From: Mytilus edulis
Lineage: Eukaryota
Direction of reading: 5' to 3'
Assembly: GCF_963676685.1 (NCBI RefSeq)
Contig: NC_092345.1
Span: 28,086,001 to 28,150,000 of the forward strand
DNA: 64,000 bases
Both the position numbers and the translations under genes were made by a program. Of this stretch, positions 1,790-55,509 are shown piece by piece; position 1 is the first letter of the stretch; each line of letters starts with the position of its first letter. A model generated the notes under the pieces. It was not told the origin of the DNA and did no database searches. It was given only the letters and a program-made list of their open reading frames with translations.

Positions 1790-4170
1790 ACAGTTCTTAC
1801 ATCCCTTGAAGGTTGTTCTAGACTAGTCTTTAAACCAATTCTCCAATCCTATTTAGAAAAGTGTATGACAGAAGCTGTTGTATAACAGTAACATTCTACC
1901 TTAAAACAGATGTTGAAAGCTTTATTCTGGAACAGTTTTGGACAGTTCTACAGTACAAAAACAAAGACTGTGACAGCTCAACCATATCGATACAAACCTT
2001 TCTATTCTACCCAGGAACGGCGTGACAGTTCTACCCTTTTAGTTTTACCCGAAAAAAGATTATGAAAGTTTTACCTAATAAAAGGTTCAGAAAGTTCTAC
2101 CATAGAACAGCTTTTCAAATTTCTATATATAAGTGATTTTGACTGTTCTTTTATAGGACTGATACTGATAGTTCTATCCTAGAACAGCTTCAGATAGTTC
2201 TTCTGTAGAACTGAATATAACAGTTCTGCCAAGAATTGATTGTTACATATTCACCCTAGAACCGATCCTAATCTTGACAGCTTTTTTCTTGGACAGATTC
2301 GGACAATTCTTCAGAAGAAAATATTCTAATAGTTCAACCATTGATAGGGAATGAAAGCTTACAAGTCTACCCATTAACATGTTAGTACAGTTCTACACTA
2401 CTACATATTATGATACTAGTAGTTCTACTTTAGAATTTTTTTTTGACAGTTTTATCCGAGAAGATATTTTCAATGTTTTACATTAGAACAGGCTCATACA
2501 GTAGATATAGGAAGATGTGGTATGAGTGCCAATGAGAAAACTCTCAATCCAAGTATATATCAATTTATAAAACGTTAACCATCATACAGCTCTACCATAG
2601 AACAGTTTCATATAGTTCTACCATAGAACTGATTCAGACTGTTTTAACCTAGAACAGATTCAGACAGTTCTACTCTAGAACAGCTTCAGATAGTTCTACT
2701 CTAGTACTGATTCTAATCTTGCCAATCTATCCTGGGAAAGGCTTAAACAGTTCTTCGATAGAAAAGACTATGAGAGCTCAACTATGGAAACATACCTAGC
2801 ATTTCTACCCATGAACATGTTATTACAGTTCTACAATAGAACGTACCCGGTATTCTAACAGTTCTACTTTAGAACACGTTTTGACAGTTTTATCCAAAAG
2901 GAGATTCGGAAAGTTTTACATTAGAACAGGTTCAGACAGCTCTACCATAGAATAGCTTCTCATGGATATACCGTAGAACTGATTTTTACTGTTCTGCCTA
3001 GAACAGTTTCCGACATTTTCCTGATTTTGATCTTGACAGCTGTTTTATGACAGAAACAAACTTACAATTTTCATCATGAACAAGGTTGTACAGTTCAATC
3101 CTAAAACATATTGTGACAGTTATGTCTTGGAACAAATCCTGAAGGTTTATCATGGAACCAGTTTGAACAGTTCTATACCCATGAACGTTTTGTAGTTCTT
3201 CCTTAGATCAAGTTGTGGCAGTTTGAAGACATTCTGACAGTTATGCCATAGAACAGATTCTGATAGTTTTACACTAAACAGTTTCTGACAGTTCTACTTT
3301 AAAACAGATTCCGGCTGGTCTCTTCTAGAACGACTTCCAATAGTTCTACTCTAGAACTGATGATAACAGTTCGGCCTGGAACAATTTCTTTCAGTATTAC
3401 CCTAAAACCGGTTCTGACAGTTTCTGCTGTTCTACATGAAACTGATAATTACGATTCAATCCTTATTACGATTCTCTGATTATGACAGTTCTACTTAAGA
3501 ATATTTTCTGCTGTTCTATCTGAAAGGGATACTGATAGTTCAATCCTTCAACTGATTCTGATAGTTTTATTATCAAACTCATTCTGACAGTTCTACCCTA
3601 GAACAGATTATGAGTGTATTTATATGAGCTTCATCCGATAGTTCTATTTTGAAGCATATACGGATATTATACCCTTAAACCGATTGTGACAGTTCTATTT
3701 TAGCACAGCGTTTGATAGTTCTTTTTTTTTACAGTTATACCATATAACAGCTTCTGATATTTTACCCTAGAACTGATTCTGAAATTTCTACTCTAGAATT
3801 GAATCTGACAGTTCTACTCTAGAACTGATTCTGAGTGTTCTATCCTAGAACTGATTCTTGCAGTTTTACCCTGGAATTGATCATGATTCTGACAAATGTA
3901 CTCTAGAACTGATTCTGGTAGATGTACCCTTAAAGAAGTTCTGATAGTTCTACCTACTAATATATTCTGACATGCATTTTTACCCTAGAATAGGTTTTTT
4001 ATAATTATTCTATGGAAAAGCTTTTGATGTTCTACTCTGAAACTAATTTCTGACAGTTCTATTCTAAAATTGATTCTAGCAGTTTTATCCTATAACTGAT
4101 TATGACAGTTTTATAATTAAACAAATTTCGGTTGTGTCTTTTTTTAACGAGAACAGATTCTGATAGTGTT
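1790..4170. repeat. Degenerate 26-bp minisatellite array (consensus ~CTAGAACTGATTCTGACAGTTCTACT)
   Basis: Monomers start at 3793, 3819 and 3845 (26-bp period). Diverged copies extend over ~2.4 kb. The monomer contains an internal inverted pair, TAGAACTG/CAGTTCTA. Confidence 0.9.
2502..2581 (+). mobile_element. Truncated interspersed-repeat (family B) insertion into the minisatellite, with 8-bp TSD
   Basis: AGGAAGATGTGGTATGAGTGCCAATGAG matches other copies (e.g. reverse complement at ~16800-16830). Flanked by TCATACAG at 2494-2501 and 2582-2589. Confidence 0.75.
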
Positions 4171-8929: not shown

Positions 8930-9470
8930 CTGATTTGGACCAACTTGAAAACTGGGCCCATAATCAAAAATCAAAGTACATATTTAGATAAAGCATATCA
9001 AATAAGCCCAAGAATTTAATTTTTGTTAAAATCAAACGTAGTTTAATTTTGGACCCTTTGGACCTTAATGTAGACCAATTTGAAAACTAGACCAAAAATT
9101 AAGAATCTACATACACAGTTAGATTTGGCATATCAAAGAACCCATTTATTCAATTTTTGATGAAATCAAACAAAGTTTAATTTTAGACCCCCATTTGGAC
9201 CAACTTTAAAACTAGGCCAATAATTAAAAATTTAAGTTCATTTTTAAATTCAGCATATCAAAGAACCCCAAGGATTCAATTTTTGTTAAAATCAAACTAA
9301 GTTTAATTTTGGACCCTTTGGACCTTAATGTAGACCAATTTGAAAACTGGACCAAAAGTTAAGAATCTACATACACAGTCATGACAGTTAGATTCAGCAT
9401 ATCAAAGAACCCCAATTATTCAATTTTGATGAAATCAAACAAAAGTTTAATTTTGGACCCTTTGGGCCCC
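8930..9470. repeat. ~130-bp alternating A/B subrepeats (~260-bp higher-order unit) inside the HINE
   Basis: GACCAA(C/T)TT(G/T)AAAACT recurs at ~8938, 9073, 9199 and 9333; copies 1/3 and 2/4 are most similar. Confidence 0.8.
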
Positions 9471-10075
9471 TTATTATGTTGGGACCAAAACTCCCAAAAT
9501 CAAACCCAACCTTTCTTTTATGGTCATAAACCTTGTGTTTAAATTTCATAGATTTCTATTTACTTATACTAACGTTATGGTGCGAAAACCAAGAAAAATG
9601 CTTATTTGGGTCCCTTTTTGGCCCCTAATTCCTAAACTGTTGGGACCTAAACTCCCAAAATCAATACCAACCTTCCTTTTGTAGTCATTAACATTGTGTT
9701 TAAATTTCATTGATTTCTATTTACTTAAACTAATGTTATTGTGCGAAAACCAAGAATAATGCTTATTTGGGCCCTTTTTTGGCCCCTAATTTCTAAACTG
9801 TTGAGACCAAAACTCCCAAAATCAATCCCAACCGTTCATTTGTGGTCATAAACCTTGTGTCAAAATTTCATAGATTTCTATTAACTTAAACTAAAGTTAT
9901 AGTGCGAAAACCAAGAAAATGCTTATTTGGGCCCTTTTTGGCCCCTAATTCCTAAAATGTTGAGACCAAAACTCCCAAAATCAATACCAACCTTCCTTTT
10001 GTGGTCATAAACCTTGTGTTAAAATTTCATAGATTTCCATTCACTTTTACTAAAGTTAGAGTGCGAAAACTAAAA
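9470..10075. repeat. ~160-bp tandem repeat (~3.7 copies) inside the HINE
   Basis: G(G/A)GACC(A/T)AAACTCCCAAAATCAA at 9481, 9642, 9803 and 9962 (periods 161, 161, 159). Confidence 0.9.
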
Positions 10076-39665: not shown

Positions 39666-39912
39666 TGTATGCATTTTCTTTCTTTAAAGATAAGCTGTAG
39701 GAACGGCAATACTACACCATATGCGCATAAATGTGTTTCGGATGACAAAATATTTAAAAATGCAAAACCTTATACAAACATTGAAGAACCTGATAAAAGC
39801 AAAAAGTAACCGAAGTATAATAGCAAACTCGCACAACTTATCAGAGCAATACACTAATGAGATACATTTTTCAGTTTTAAATTATTACAAATATTTTACA
39901 ACAGCAAATATC

Positions 39913-42900
39913 AACTAGATTTGCCATTGCAAGCAATAGCGGATGGCACCCTTCCCCCATTGCCAGGCGAGTGGCAGCCATTTTGAAAAATTCAAAATCA
40001 AAGAGGGCTTTTACACATGTTTATTAACATTGTTGTAAAATTTCAACTCGTTTGGAGCATTTTGAAATTTTTGAAAATTTTGCTGTTTCCATGGTAATAG
40101 TTACTATTTCCAAAATTCAAAAGACAGGTGCCACATTGGTACATGCCATGTTACATATCTATAAAGTTTCATTGGGATTGATGCTATATTCTTCAAGAAA
40201 ATGTAGCTTTTATGTGTTTTCCCATACGGTCAATGCTAAACTTTCGCCCTGTTTCCATGACAATGGCGGCCATTTTGGAACCTCTTGATATTGCATGCAC
40301 ATCTGGGCATACCATGTAACACTTCCACAAAGTTTCATCCACTTGGGTCTTATAATGAAAGATTTGGAATTTTGCCAATTTTTCACATTTTTGCAGTTTC
40401 CATGGAAACGGCAGCCATCTTGAACCATTCCATGGTGCCTGCAACTCTTCACCTAAGGGTCCTCTATATAATAGAGTTCCATCAACTTTGGTTCATTGGA
40501 TTTCCAGAAATCTCCTGGACAAAATGTGTGGAAGAAAAATAATAAAAACTAGATTTGCAATTGCAAGCAATAGCGGATGGCACCCTTCCCATATTGCCAG
40601 GTGAGCGGTAGCCATGGTAACGGCGGCCATTTTGGAAATTCCAAACTCAAAAGTCAAGTCTACATTAGCTGAGCAACATTTGTTATAAGTTTCAATAAAT
40701 TTGAAGCATTTTGAAGTTTTTTGTATTTTTGCTGTTTCTATGGTAACGGCGGCCATTTTGAATATTCCAAAGTCAAACCCCCGCTGCAATTTTTCCCCTC
40801 CATAATCATATACCATATTTAATGTCTCTAGAATAAATTAAACATTGATGTTCTAGAATGTTCTGTGAAAATTCAAAGTTTTGACCTTTTTGCATTGTTT
40901 CCATGGTAACAACAGCGATTTTGGAAATTCCAACGCCAAATTTCACATCTTCCAATGTTGCTCATCGTTACTGTGAAGTTTCATTAAGTTTGGAACATTT
41001 TGAGATTTTTGAATTTTTTGGAGTAGTTTCCATGGCAACATAGTAGTTCCAATGAGGGCCAAAATCATCCAAGACCTGTATATAGTGGGCACCTACATTG
41101 TATTATAATATAATGATTCTGAGTTAAAGCATATACAAACAGTTCACCAAAACAAAAAACTGGATTTTTTCACATTTGTTCCGTTTCCATGGTAACGGCA
41201 GCCATCTTAAAAGTGCCACCCCCAAAAAGCAAATCTTCATTTGGTGGTTAACATTATGGTATAGTTCCATCTTCTTGGGTCCATTCATATAAGAGTTCCA
41301 GACCGGACAAAAATGTGTGGAAGAAAAATAATAAAAAAAACAAAAAGAAACGTAGAATAACAATATGTCACCCAAACTCCGTTTAGGGTGCCATAATAAT
41401 AATAATAATAACTAGATTTGCCATTGCAAGCAATAGCGGATGGCACCCTTCCCACATTGCCAGGCGAGCGGCAGCAATCTAGAAAATTCCAAAGTCAAAG
41501 TGTGCATCTACACATTCAAATTATCATATTTGTAAAGTTTCATTAAGTTTGGAGCATTTTGAAGTTTTTGACATTTTTGCTGTTTCCATGGTTACAGCAG
41601 CCATTTTGAAAATTCCAACTTCAAATGTCAACTTTGCTTATGCCAGTGACCATTCCTGTAAAGTTTCATCCAGTTTAAAGCATTTTTAATTTTTTTGAAA
41701 TTTTTGACCTTTTTTGCATTGTTTCCATGGTAACAACAGATATTTTAGAAATTCCAACGCCAAATTCCACATCTTCCAATGTTGCTCATCGTTACTGTGA
41801 AGTTTCATGAAGTTTGGAGCATTTTGATATTTTTGAAATTTTTGGTACAGTTTCCATGGCAACATAGTAGTTCCAATGAGTGCCAAAATCATCCAACACC
41901 TGTATATGGCCGGCACCTACATTGTATCAAAATATAATGGTTCTGAGTTTAAGCATATCAAAACAGTTCACCAAAACAAAAAACAGGATTTTTTCACATT
42001 TGTTTCGTTTCCATGGCAACGTCAGCCATCTTGATGGTGCCATACCTCACTGCACTATAGAATGTGGTGGTCTACATTATGGTATAGTTCCATCAATATT
42101 GTTCAAGCCAATTCCGAGAAATAGAATGGACAAAAAAGTGTGGAAGAATAAAAATAATAACTAGAATTGCCATTGCAAGCAATAGCGGATGTCACCCTTC
42201 CCCTATTGCCACTAACCGGCAGCCATTTCAAAATGGTTTAACAGTGAATGCACATATATTTATGGCAATACATCTTTCTGTAAATTTTCAGTACATTCAG
42301 AGCATTTTAAAAAAATTCACATTTCTGCTGTTTCCATGGCAACGGCAGCCATTTTGAAAATTTCAAAGTGAAAAGTCTCATCTGTACTTGGCAGTTAACA
42401 ATAATATCAAGTTTCATTAAGTTCAAAGCATTTTGAGAAATTTTGACTTTTTTGCAGTTTCCAAGGCAACGGTGGCCATTTTGGAAATTCCAAAGTCAAA
42501 AGTCTCATCCAGACTTGCCAGTCAACTATCATATTAAGTTTCATCAATTTTGGAGCATTTTGAAATTTTTTAGATATTTGATCCTGTATCCATGGTAACA
42601 GAGTAGTTCCAATGATTGTCAAAATCATTCAAAACCTGTATATAGTGGACAACTATATTGCATAAAAATTTGATGATTTTAAGTTCAAGCATACCAAAGT
42701 TATTCACCAAACCCTGAAGTTTTTAGAGCATTTTGACACTTATGCACTGTTTCCATGGTAACGGCAGACATTTTGGAAATTCCAACGCCAAATTCCACTT
42801 CTACCAAAGTTGCTCATCGTTATGCTAAAGTTTCAAAAAATTTGGATCATTTTGATATTTTTGAAATTTTTGGTGTCGTTTCCATGGCAACATAGTAGTT

Positions 42901-44263
42901 CCAATGATTGCCAAAATCATCCAAAACCAGTATATGCCCGGCACCTACATTGTATCAAAATATAATGATTCTAAGTTAAAGCATTTCCAAATAATTCATC
43001 AAAACCAAAAACTGGAATTTTCCATTATTTTTCGGTTTCCATGGTGATGGCAGCCATTTTTTAGTTCCAAAGTTGCACTGCAACTGGACAGTCAGGGTTC
43101 CTTGTTATAGTGCACCATCATTCAGATTGGTCCCTTTGGCTCTGAGAAAACTGCCGGACAAAACCAGGTGGAAGAAAAATAATAATAATAATAGTGAAAA
43201 AGAAACAGAGGAATAGCAATATGTCACCCGACATTGTCGATCGGGTGACATAACTAGATTTGTAATTGCTAGCAATAACGGATGGCACCCTTCCGCCATT
43301 GCCAGGATAACAGCAGCCATTTTGAAAATTCCAAAATCAAAGACCGGATTTACACATGCCTATTAACATTTTTGTAAAGTTTTAGAAAGATTGGAGCATT
43401 TTGAAAATTTTGATATTTTTCGCATTTTACCAGTTTCCATGGTAACGGCGGCCATCTTGGTAGTGCCAACCCTTATTTGCAAATCTGCACATGGTGGTTA
43501 ACATTATTGTAAAGTTCCATCAGCATTGGTCCATACAGTTCCGAGAAATCGCCTGGACAAAAAAAGTGGAAGAAAAATAATATTAAAAATAAGAAAAAAA
43601 GAAACGTAGAATAACAATATGTCACCCAAACTCCGTTTAGGGTGCCATAACTAGAATTGCCATTGCAAGCAATAGCGGATGCCACCCTGGTCCACCCATT
43701 GCCACTTAACAGCAGCCATGGTAACGGAAGCCATTTTGGAAATTCCAAAGTTGAAAGCCGCATCTAGATTAACAAGTTAACATTTCTGTAACGTTTCATA
43801 CAGATTTGAAGAATTTTCAAAATTTTGCCTTTTTTGCACAGTTTCCATGGCAACATTTGAAAATTCCAAAGTCATACTGCTGCTTTATATTGTGCTCGCC
43901 ATAATATAATACCATTATATAACATTAAATGTTCGTAGATTTACTTTAACACCAATGTTCTAGAACGTTCTATTATATTTTTACATTCTTTCTGTTTCCA
44001 TGACAACGGCAGCCATGTTGGATATGCCAACCCTCGACTGCACTTCTGCACATGGTCTTTAACATTTTGGTAAAGTTCCATAACAATTGGTCCATCCTAT
44101 TCCCAGAAATAGTCTGGACAAAAAAGTGTGGAATAATAATAAAAAAAAGAATCGTACAATAACAATATGTCACCCGACCTCAGTCAGGGTGACATAATAA
44201 TAAGAAAAAAAAAGAAACGTAGAATAACAATACGTCACCCCAACTCCGTTGAGGGTGCCATAA
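39913..44263 (-). mobile_element. Stack of six non-autonomous Helentron-like (HINE) elements, head-to-tail/nested
   Basis: Near-identical end motif AACTAGA(T/A)TTGCCATTGCAAGCAATAGCGGATG(G/T/C)CACCC at 39913, 40547, 41410, 42159, 43252 and 43649. Opposite-end hairpins ATGTCACCC...GGGTG(C/A)CATAA at ~41365, 43221, 43619, 44167 and 44232. Interiors are built of ~127-160-bp modules. Confidence 0.85.
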
Positions 44264-45451
44264 TAATAAAGCAATATTTATATTTAAGTGCCAGAAGCGA
44301 AGTACTGCCTACTGGGCTTGTGAAATCCTCGCGAAATGACCAACCGACGTTGTGTTTTCAATCTTTAGGGGGTTAATGCCATTATTTAGTACACATGATT
44401 GCTCCCAAAAGAAGAAATATCTTAGATGCACTTTGCCCTGATATTCAAACTCATGGCCATCCTATGTATACCCTAATATCAAACTTCTATTGCAAATACA
44501 AAGCAATTATAGTTTCATATAAAAGGATATAATAGAACACTCAGAATTTAACAATTCAATATTTTTTTCGTTTTTTTTTCTTCAAATGTCGATATCGCTG
44601 TAATCATCTTTTAATTATCTACCAATTATACACTTCCGGTTAGAATAAAATCGACAACCAATTGCACACATGTCAATCAAGTGTTAATAAACATTCAGCA
44701 GTACACGTAGGACATTTGTTTTCTTTATATAAATAGTTTAAAGAATTCCTGATAGCTTTATATTAGAGTAAAATGTCAGATCTGCTTTTGAAGGGAATTG
44801 TATAACATAAAAGACGTTTTCATAATTCAAAATTAAATCGTTCGGAATGATAACCTGAGGAACATTTAGCTCTTAACACTTAGAATGGCAATGGAAAAGA
44901 CCAAAGTAACTAAAAAGATTACTATCGAATTAATGGGTTTTTAAATATTCTTAATAAGCCTTAATTAAAAAGTGAAATAAGAAAATGATATTACAAAGTA
45001 GAACTCATTGTTTGATGATTGACAGAACGAAATACCGATAAAGAAATACATTGTTCCATTGGTATTGTCCCAAACGTAAAAAAGCAGAGTAGAACATAAA
45101 AAAATGTTTAAGTGTTTACAAGATAAAGTGATGATTAGGCTTTTAAAATGTCAATGTTATAAGAAATAAAAGTGTGCATGTAATACTTGTTTTCTTATGC
45201 ACACCATTTACATTGATCTAAGATAAAGTCATTCTGCATTTGGCGAAAGTGCAATGGTTTTTGTGAATGCAAATAGAAAAGTCAGCAAGCAAATAAATTG
45301 CGTTCAAACGTTGTGCAGATATAGCCTAACGATGTTTAAACTAATAAATAGTCTAATTGAATAAAAACTTCATTTTAGACGGGGTTTCTGTTGGGAGATT
45401 TCAAAAAATATTAATAAAATAAAATTGTCCACATATCATGTAACTGATGAC

Positions 45452-46612: not shown

Positions 46613-46892
46613 TGATACCAAACTCCAAAGCAAAGTCCTGATACCAAACTCCAAGGCAAAGTCCTGATACCAAACTCCAAGGCAAAGTCCTAATACCAAA
46701 CTCCAAGGCAAAGTCCTGATACCAAACTCCAAGGCAAAGTCCTGATACCAACTACAAGGCAAAGTCCTGATACCAAACTCCAAGGCAAAGTCCTGATACC
46801 AAACTCCAAGGCAAAGTCCTGATACCAAACTCCAAGCCAAAGTCCTGATACCAAACTCCAAGGCAAAGTCCTGATACCAACTACAAGGCAAA
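46613..46892. repeat. Homogeneous 26-bp minisatellite (GATACCAAACTCCAAGGCAAAGTCCT) x~11
   Basis: Direct reading; near-identical copies with a recurring 25-bp CAACTACAAGG variant. Confidence 0.95.
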
Positions 46893-54554: not shown

Positions 54555-55420
54555 TATGAAATATCTCATGATTACAATGATTCATTATAGTTAGTCCGTC
54601 AATGATATATCTCATGACGACAATGATTCATTATGGTTAGTCCATCAATGAGATATCTCATGATGACAATGATTCATTATAGTTAGTCCGTCAATGAGAT
54701 ATCTCATGACGATAATGATTCATTATGGTTAGTCCGTCAATAAGATATCTCATGACAAACAATGATTCATTATGGTTAGTCCATCAATGAGATATTTCAT
54801 GATGACAATGATTCATTATAGTTAGTCCATCAATGAGATATATCATGATGACAATTATACATTATGGTTAGTCCATCAATGAGATATCTCATGACGACAA
54901 TGATTCATTAAGGTTTGTCCGTCAATGAAATATTTCATGATGACAATGATTCATCATGGTTCGTCCGTCAATGAAATATCTCATGACGATAATGGTTCAT
55001 TATGGTTCGTCCGTCAGTGAGATATCTCATCACGACAATGATTCATTATAGTTAGTCCGTCAATGAGATATCTCATCACGACAATGATTCATTATGGTTA
55101 GTCCGTCTATGAAATATCTCATCACGACAATGATTCATTATGGTTCGTCCGTCAGTGAGATATCTCATTACGATAGTGATTCATTATGGTTCGTCCGTCA
55201 GCGAGATATCTAATCACGACAATGATTCATTATGGTTAGTCCGTCAATGAGATATATCATGACGACAATGATTCATTATGGTTAGTCCGTCAATGAGATA
55301 TCTCATGACGACAATGATTCATTATGGTTCGTCCGTCAATGATATATCTCATGACGACAATGATTCATTATGGTTCGTCCGTCAATGAGATATCTCATGA
55401 TGACAATGATTCATTGTGGA
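54555..55420. repeat. 46-bp minisatellite x~18-19 (TGAGATATCTCATGACGACAATGATTCATTATGGTTAGTCCGTCAA)
   Basis: Period 46 (54601 to 54647). Contains the 14-bp palindrome ATGAGATATCTCAT and AATGATTCATT. No unique spacers. Confidence 0.95.
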
Positions 55421-55509
55421 TCGTCCCTGAATAAGACAGTACTTGATGTATTATAAGTATCCATATGCATTTTAAATAAAACGACAACAGAAAGCGAATT
55501 GCAAAATAT

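Follow-up and report, generated by a model that had tools for sequence, protein, structure and literature searches.

Ordered nesting of non-autonomous Helentrons in the 5' tract of related copies in the Mytilus edulis genome

Helitron-like elements are thought to select little beyond a dinucleotide when they insert. In Helentrons and in HINEs or DINE-1 elements (HLE2), subTIRs, a 5' inverted repeat, a microsatellite and a 3' palindrome are combined with a TT target that is not duplicated and with a Rep/PIF1 transposase carrying an endonuclease and DUF6570 (PMC4067079; PMC11417382). The elements described here share these features, but in the accessible text of those accounts clustering is just a possibility and no fixed target within kin is described. 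The oyster Cg_HINE elements, with internal modules of 125-170 bp, and complex Helitron loci are alike in anatomy, in their bivalve host and in holding elements within elements (PMC7492417; PMC11136912; PMC12628747; PMC8268682); the portions of these papers at hand describe the loci as shuffled or as internal array expansion, whereas the mussel nests are ordered and use one site. FoHeli of Fusarium (HLE2) has several 5' termini less than 200 bp apart, which in the available sections are explained by self-insertion near the 5' end in a few cases (PMC5148889), and the double left end of the Xenopus HLE2 element HelenXT233 is also explained by self-insertion (PMC11417382). Those few cases are, in these excerpts, chimeras with two 5' ends and one 3' end, whereas here most copies are nested, the ends are balanced, depth reaches 11-15 and chimeras look rare. 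The telomeric Helitrons of Paramecium resemble the present elements in their proposed insertion, with fixed orientation, into one strand of a simple repeat (bioRxiv 10.1101/2025.11.06.686955); as presented in the part of the preprint available, they differ in targeting a host repeat and in forming a clade separate from HLE2, whereas here the target travels inside the element. Double-insertion tandems of transposable elements in Drosophila likewise reuse a preserved site and yield head-to-tail neighbours, but according to the accessible text they need a target-site duplication and give whole-element dimers (PMC5932611), whereas here nothing is duplicated and the host is split by recursion. In openly accessible full texts, no description of ordered or recursive Helitron nesting across a genome was found. 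The Helentron/HINE class and scattered cases of self-insertion are known.

The window analyzed here is a stretch of 64,000 nucleotides (positions 28086001-28150000 of contig 2, NC_092345.1) in a 1,368-Mb (1.37-Gb) assembly, which was surveyed as a whole with exact end patterns. Its array is read as a nest of six non-autonomous Helentron copies built by serial targeted insertion into the 5' tract of kin, with a probability of roughly 0.8. Serial insertion displacing termini was the core of the original prediction, and it is supported by an excess of such stacks across the genome, by dispersed relatives of the units, by the assignment of an orphan 5' end to unit 1 and by an empty site. The six units are HINEs on the minus strand, and no open frame of at least 170 residues occurs within the 64-kb window. 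On that strand, a complete unit opens with a hairpin that contains the 5' subTIR and inverted repeat, followed by a (TTA)n tract, a body built of modules of 125-140 bp, a 3' subTIR, a palindrome and a CTAG-T end. In these minus-strand elements ACTAG, common to the units, marks the 3' terminus and the hairpin marks the 5' terminus. The 3' and 5' copies of the subTIR are complementary and covary in 148/149 intact units. Four 5' ends of the window fold at -8.9 to -12.1 kcal/mol with the (AAT)n tract alongside, while the 3' palindrome is imperfect in sequence and was formed partly or not at all in the minimum-energy folds of two ends. Insertion falls between T and T without target duplication, a feature of Helentrons and HINEs. 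Canonical Helitrons (HLE1) have a 5' TC end and an AT target; here the 5' end is TATG and lies between T's, and the likeness to HLE1 is limited to CTAG near the 3' end. By analogy with the known family, transposition would be of the rolling-circle type and carried out by the family's enzyme.

Copies of the common end begin at 39914, 40548, 41411, 42160, 43253 and 43650, with start-to-start spacings of 634, 863, 749, 1093 and 397, so that six units with a common end but unequal lengths are present as had been described from the sequence; unit 6 measures 547 bp. An 18-mer of this end has five window matches at ≤3 mismatches against a chance mean of 0.02, unit 5 carrying a variant. The subTIR copy is ATGGCACCC in units 1, 2, 3 and 5, ATGTCACCC in unit 4 and ATGCCACCC in unit 6. 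Compared with the empty allele, the whole insertion occupies 39913..44264 (4,352 bp, minus strand) and comprises a founder HINE whose 5' tract contains the other five HINEs as a nest. Unit 1, the founder (39914..40547, lineage A), retains its 3' end, 3' palindrome, subTIR, body and the first 11 nt of its (AAT)n tract. Within that tract sits unit 2, a complete HINE of lineage A (40548..41395), as judged from relatives and the parse; the 15 positions 41396..41410 between units 2 and 3 would be a leftover of the same tract. Unit 3 (41411..42159, lineage A) has its tract split by unit 4 and its own 5' end is absent from the array. Units 4 (42160..43252, lineage B), 5 (43253..43649, short, with lineage A ends) and 6 (43650..44196, lineage C) are complete, no spacer separating unit 5 from units 4 and 6. 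Behind unit 6 lies the displaced 5' end of unit 1 (44197..44262), with the remaining tract, inverted repeat, hairpin (-8.9 kcal/mol) and 5' subTIR. The original prediction that units 1 and 3 lack the terminal hairpin and that an orphan terminus follows unit 6 was thus correct, both bodies stopping within the (AAT)n tract and units 2, 4, 5 and 6 being complete. Its placement of all junctions in the (AAT)n/ATAA tract fails for 4/5 and 5/6, where ends abut without tract.

Two bodies therefore lack a 5' end, yet the array holds a single orphan. This orphan is the 5' end of unit 1, and unit 1 encloses units 2-6: an intact relative of unit 1 has the orphan's subtype, whereas the relatives of unit 3 have another, which settles a choice between units 1 and 3 that had been left for checking. 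In a type-aware parse of the window, too, the orphan closes unit 1, and unit 3 is left without a partner. Strict last-in-first-out pairing assigns the orphan to unit 3, a result ruled out by the 5' subtype; the 5' end of unit 3 is lost.

Arrays elsewhere can likewise be read as balanced brackets. Some 7% of copies were sampled, in 41 windows' worth of arrays from lists beginning on contigs 1 and 2; units without a recognizable internal motif were dropped (28/269 rows, 4/105 orphans and 2/20 held-out orphans). With each unit's own array left out, the body end predicts the 5' lineage in 119/119 intact units. Last-in-first-out pairing of orphan 5' ends with interrupted bodies is correct in 79/101 cases, against 40.8±4.5 in global and 51.1±4.5 in within-array shuffles (maxima 57 and 68; none of 10,000 reached 79), and the 22 mismatched strict pairings occur in runs that follow a single missing end. 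In held-out arrays fetched later, all 18 scorable of 20 orphans matched (within-array null 14.0±1.6, p 0.03). The type-aware parse, which maximizes pairing, joined 220/240 3' ends in 16 arrays at depths of up to 11-15 and left 20/240 3' ends and 8/228 5' ends unpaired; its control gave 163 pairs against 149.9±2.0 in 60 shuffles of 15 arrays.

The units of the window have their closest relatives at other loci. Unit 1 has five full-length relatives at 92-95% (best 95.3%), unit 2 six at 95-97% (best 97.3%), unit 3 several at 97-98% (best 98.1%) and unit 6 several at 97.3-97.7%, while the best full-length relative of unit 4 elsewhere reaches 95.5% and the best sampled relative of unit 5 81%. Between neighbors in the window, alignments at 69-83% cover 17-60% of the length; units 2 and 3, which are 77% alike throughout, are the exception. 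Five units are thus 95-98% identical to dispersed copies, closer than to their neighbors as had been anticipated, and the earlier statement that the array is not a simple tandem duplication is borne out by three lineages whose members are not each other's closest relatives. A satellite or rolling-circle concatemer consists of homogeneous head-to-tail monomers; here, besides the partial likeness of the window units, 265 sampled units fall in 128 clusters, and arrays are mixed nests with homogeneous blocks at only a few loci.

These data bear on a local origin, in which arrays arise by unequal crossing-over, as rolling-circle concatemers or from circles recombining into resident copies. Helitron circles and plant concatemers are documented in the portions of the literature available, three sampled loci carry exact block duplications, two small contigs carry a 1.8-kb tandem, and near-identical units are in excess within arrays: of 19 unit pairs at least 99.5% identical, 18 lie within one array (10.5% expected), 8 of them as block duplications and 10, by our reading, as single units in different contexts. 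Local duplication therefore contributes, and the concentration of such pairs within one array indicates that big arrays also feed on themselves. However, the best match is adjacent for only 10/248 array units (it lies in the same array for 71, with 27 expected), swapped ends are absent in 119/119 intact units, the window combines three lineages that are not mutual closest relatives, and none of these routes gives ordered stacks of displaced ends. Local recombination is contradicted as the main route, which makes it a very improbable source of the arrays, and stays a secondary process; no near-identical pair was seen within the window's own array. The block duplications are exact over 3.5 kb and are accompanied by an inverted duplication that gives a two-way array (G000:C1:27.80, 48.63 and 8.22 Mb), which may reflect assembly error. 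The two small contigs (G000:C576 and C403) are 99.6% alike and end in the 1.8-kb tandem, which is made up of a single 1.33-kb element and another 470 bp and may represent an intermediate between nest and satellite.

Contigs of 8/8 sequencing runs, from seven samples and seven studies and with some runs carrying a possible-source flag, join 39912 to 44265, so that the empty-site haplotypes proposed as a check are present. The filled allele is 3 bases longer than element plus empty site. No filled or partly filled allele was seen among the contig pieces listed; contigs drop rare alleles, and this is not counted as absence. That all eight runs show only the empty site, and that six insertions on an allele not seen elsewhere need fast growth, would suit an assembly artefact or a nest moved whole from another locus. 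Against this stand the clean TT junctions, a near-unique flank (next-best match 74%), units that differ from all sampled copies and the failure to find a second copy of the whole array or of units 3+4 as a pair among the 3 of 2,018 and 40 of 3,294 candidates scored, which make such an origin quite unlikely. Movement of units 3+4 as a read-through composite was rejected: junction matches at 97-98% exist, but the whole of unit 4 is only 91-92% alike there. Rare unit pairs recur 6 times against 4.1±1.8 in shuffles.

Genome-wide, exact patterns recover 3,635 3' ends and 3,418 5' ends, reversed-pattern controls giving 0. Among the 3' ends, 1,216 interrupt another copy's (AAT)n tract (≤25 nt after the internal motif of the body) and 1,333 lie ≤25 nt after a 5' end, counted with a pattern 6 letters shorter; 1,291 5' ends, 38% of the total, are stacked behind another 5' end and represent displaced orphans. 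Interrupted bodies and orphan 5' ends are therefore nearly balanced, and the genome-wide excess of stacks that serial insertion led one to expect is found in all three counts. Most copies of the family (70-80%) sit in one small interval of their own kin: the first 100 contig 1 matches comprise 47 in a tract and 31 abutting a 5' end (78 together), 9 carried along within another element and 13 assigned to genomic sites, two of these 13 reading as tracts of a sister family. One carrier is a foldback-like element with a satellite-rich interior and without a long ORF, both of whose long inverted arms (3-6 kb, 91-99% alike) contain a 5'-truncated family copy (G000:C1 9.35, 13.39, 23.91, 33.22 Mb and numerous further sites). 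When founder flanks were sought by requiring a C two bases upstream, 270 matches came up, most of them one passenger copy riding in this element. The body of one nested unit holds an unrelated insertion of ~14 kb with an open frame of 1,815 residues (G000:C1:43.005-43.021 Mb).

Insertion is precise. Of 72 hosts, 56 were well matched; with the element defined as having one terminal T at each end, taking out their inserts gives back the tract length seen in the nearest intact relative, with a mean change of 0.15 nt in 33 one-insert hosts and 0 in three five-insert hosts. A gain of AAT triplets with each insertion was considered and not seen, tract length being flat with insert number. At 89/126 end-abutting junctions there is no spacer. 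Insertion is most frequent 8 and 11 nt away from the internal motif, and the points lie ~51-81 nt from the 5' end of the host: sites at 2 nt are used in 0/68 cases, at 5 nt in 1/72, at 8 nt in 30/95 and at 11 nt in 42/84. Opposite-strand inserts were not found among the interrupting junctions, bar one inverted duplication. Regression on left and right anchors, with outliers filtered, gave ambiguous slopes of 0.31 and 0.69 (n=93), and we lean weakly towards a site set from the side of the internal motif rather than from that of the 5' hairpin.

A simpler account is that the transposase just prefers T-rich (TTA)n sequence and that elements are entered for their tract, without recognition of kin. 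The commonest insertion context is indeed inside AAT repeats (76/136 points), founder sites are A-rich on the same strand, the tracts of the sister families D and D' are also entered (5/12 fetched loci) and, in the part of the preprint available, the Paramecium Helitrons are proposed to target simple telomeric repeats. But plain (AAT)6 has 36,813 overlapping matches genome-wide, and among the 11 tracts listed for the first 3.6 Mb of contig 1 there is no overlap with an element end, against 1,291 of 3,418 5' ends displaced; an AAT run lies upstream in only 2/11 genomic-site copies, both from one duplicated locus; and the sites 2 and 5 nt from the motif are nearly unused compared with those at 8 and 11 nt. 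These samples are small, and the T-rich account appears unlikely. Near-random insertion, with selection clearing copies elsewhere and sparing those inside other copies, would draw on the presumed neutrality of nested copies and on bat Helitrons, whose new and old insertion patterns differ and are read as selection in the accessible account. It is extremely improbable here: element bodies are equally neutral, far longer and TT-rich, yet 138/140 body-interrupting junctions lie in the tract, and tracts total, by arithmetic, only ~0.1 Mb of the 1,368 Mb. Since insertions hardly ever fall in element bodies or in plain (AAT)n tracts of the genome, the pattern looks like active targeting of kin, and the transposase probably recognizes more than the microsatellite. 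The original prediction of a self-targeted microsatellite stands as far as the tract in kin is concerned; the microsatellite as such is probably not the target, and the target is not strictly "self", as tracts of sister families are entered too.

A clade of autonomous elements is matched to the nested ends. PF14214 matches in the genome include ORFs between the halves of sampled arrays, and three elements of 15.6, 16.6 and 24.8 kb are bounded by the same ends, nested as the short ones are and provided with an ORF on the element strand. One ORF of 2,124 aa has PF14214, PF05970, PF20209 and PF03372 (in Pfam, Rep, PIF1, DUF6570 and endonuclease). In a quick protein tree, 13 Rep/helicase/endonuclease ORFs form one clade (SH-aLRT 97); within the 20-50 kb fetched around each, the same ends are found near 13/13 ORFs of that clade against 0/7 of other clades, one of these seven bearing the sister D' end. 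The genome has 328 D and D' ends, most of them single, and the invaded loci mentioned above contain the nested HINE family. One array (G000:C10:42.93-42.94 Mb) shows sister family D, whose 3' end differs, nested in perfect order both in its own copies and in lineage A.

In the mechanism proposed here, the Rep/helicase/endonuclease transposase would prefer the AT-rich tract ~50-80 bases from the 5' end of kin and would join a copy, single-stranded or circular, between two T's of the tract that a resident relative carries. Each insertion would keep the old target and bring a new one, and since the old site survives while the newcomer brings another, nests would grow recursively. Other parts of the genome would supply the donors, joined in big arrays by the array itself; displaced 5' ends, such as that of unit 3, may sometimes be lost by deletion between near-identical stacked ends. 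Candidate target signals are the tract and neighboring motif read by the enzyme, recruitment by the resident 5' hairpin and homology pairing. Extra 5' ends among the 228 sampled comprise 5 of the family's own types and 3 of type D, a count in which the parse could hide extras; because they are few, displaced 5' ends seem seldom to act as origins, which suggests that insertion disables the host copy. More tentatively, the clade's transposase may home on the 5' origin region of kin, so that insertion severs origin from body and silences the resident, autonomous copies included, in a gene-sparing arrangement that is self-limiting by mutual knock-out. Active displaced origins should spawn chimeras with double 5' ends, and the rarity of such chimeras therefore favors mutual knock-out: 38% of 5' ends are displaced, yet at most 5/228 sampled ends look like them. 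Also in its favor, an insertion on the 5' side is carried by 3/13 long ORFs.

The family offers a natural system for testing target choice by rolling-circle transposases, being apparently young and having long open reading frames, and an integrase that prefers one site and leaves no duplication also has interest as a tool. Nests log the order of insertion and hence the relative ages of subfamilies, and nesting explains earlier stray reports of multiple 5' termini. It gives bivalves a further way of acquiring large presence/absence variants, which measure 4.35 kb here and ~40-55 kb at two other loci, and annotation tools that pair nearest ends would mis-annotate nests. If the targeting of kin is true, it would be an unusual way of avoiding genes, with the entered copy probably disabled.

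The 125-140 bp modules of every unit (window 40081-44016) contain 1-6 copies of a GTTTCCATGGYAAC-like motif and 1-3 copies of GCCATYTT, often adjacent. We take these motifs to resemble RFX X-box and YY1 sites; thousands of element copies could disperse such candidate sites. The window also contains other tandem arrays at 2041-4114, 8938-10070, 46613-46892 and 54556-55426, with periods of 26, 135, 161, 26 and 46 bp, which probably come from unrelated repeats.
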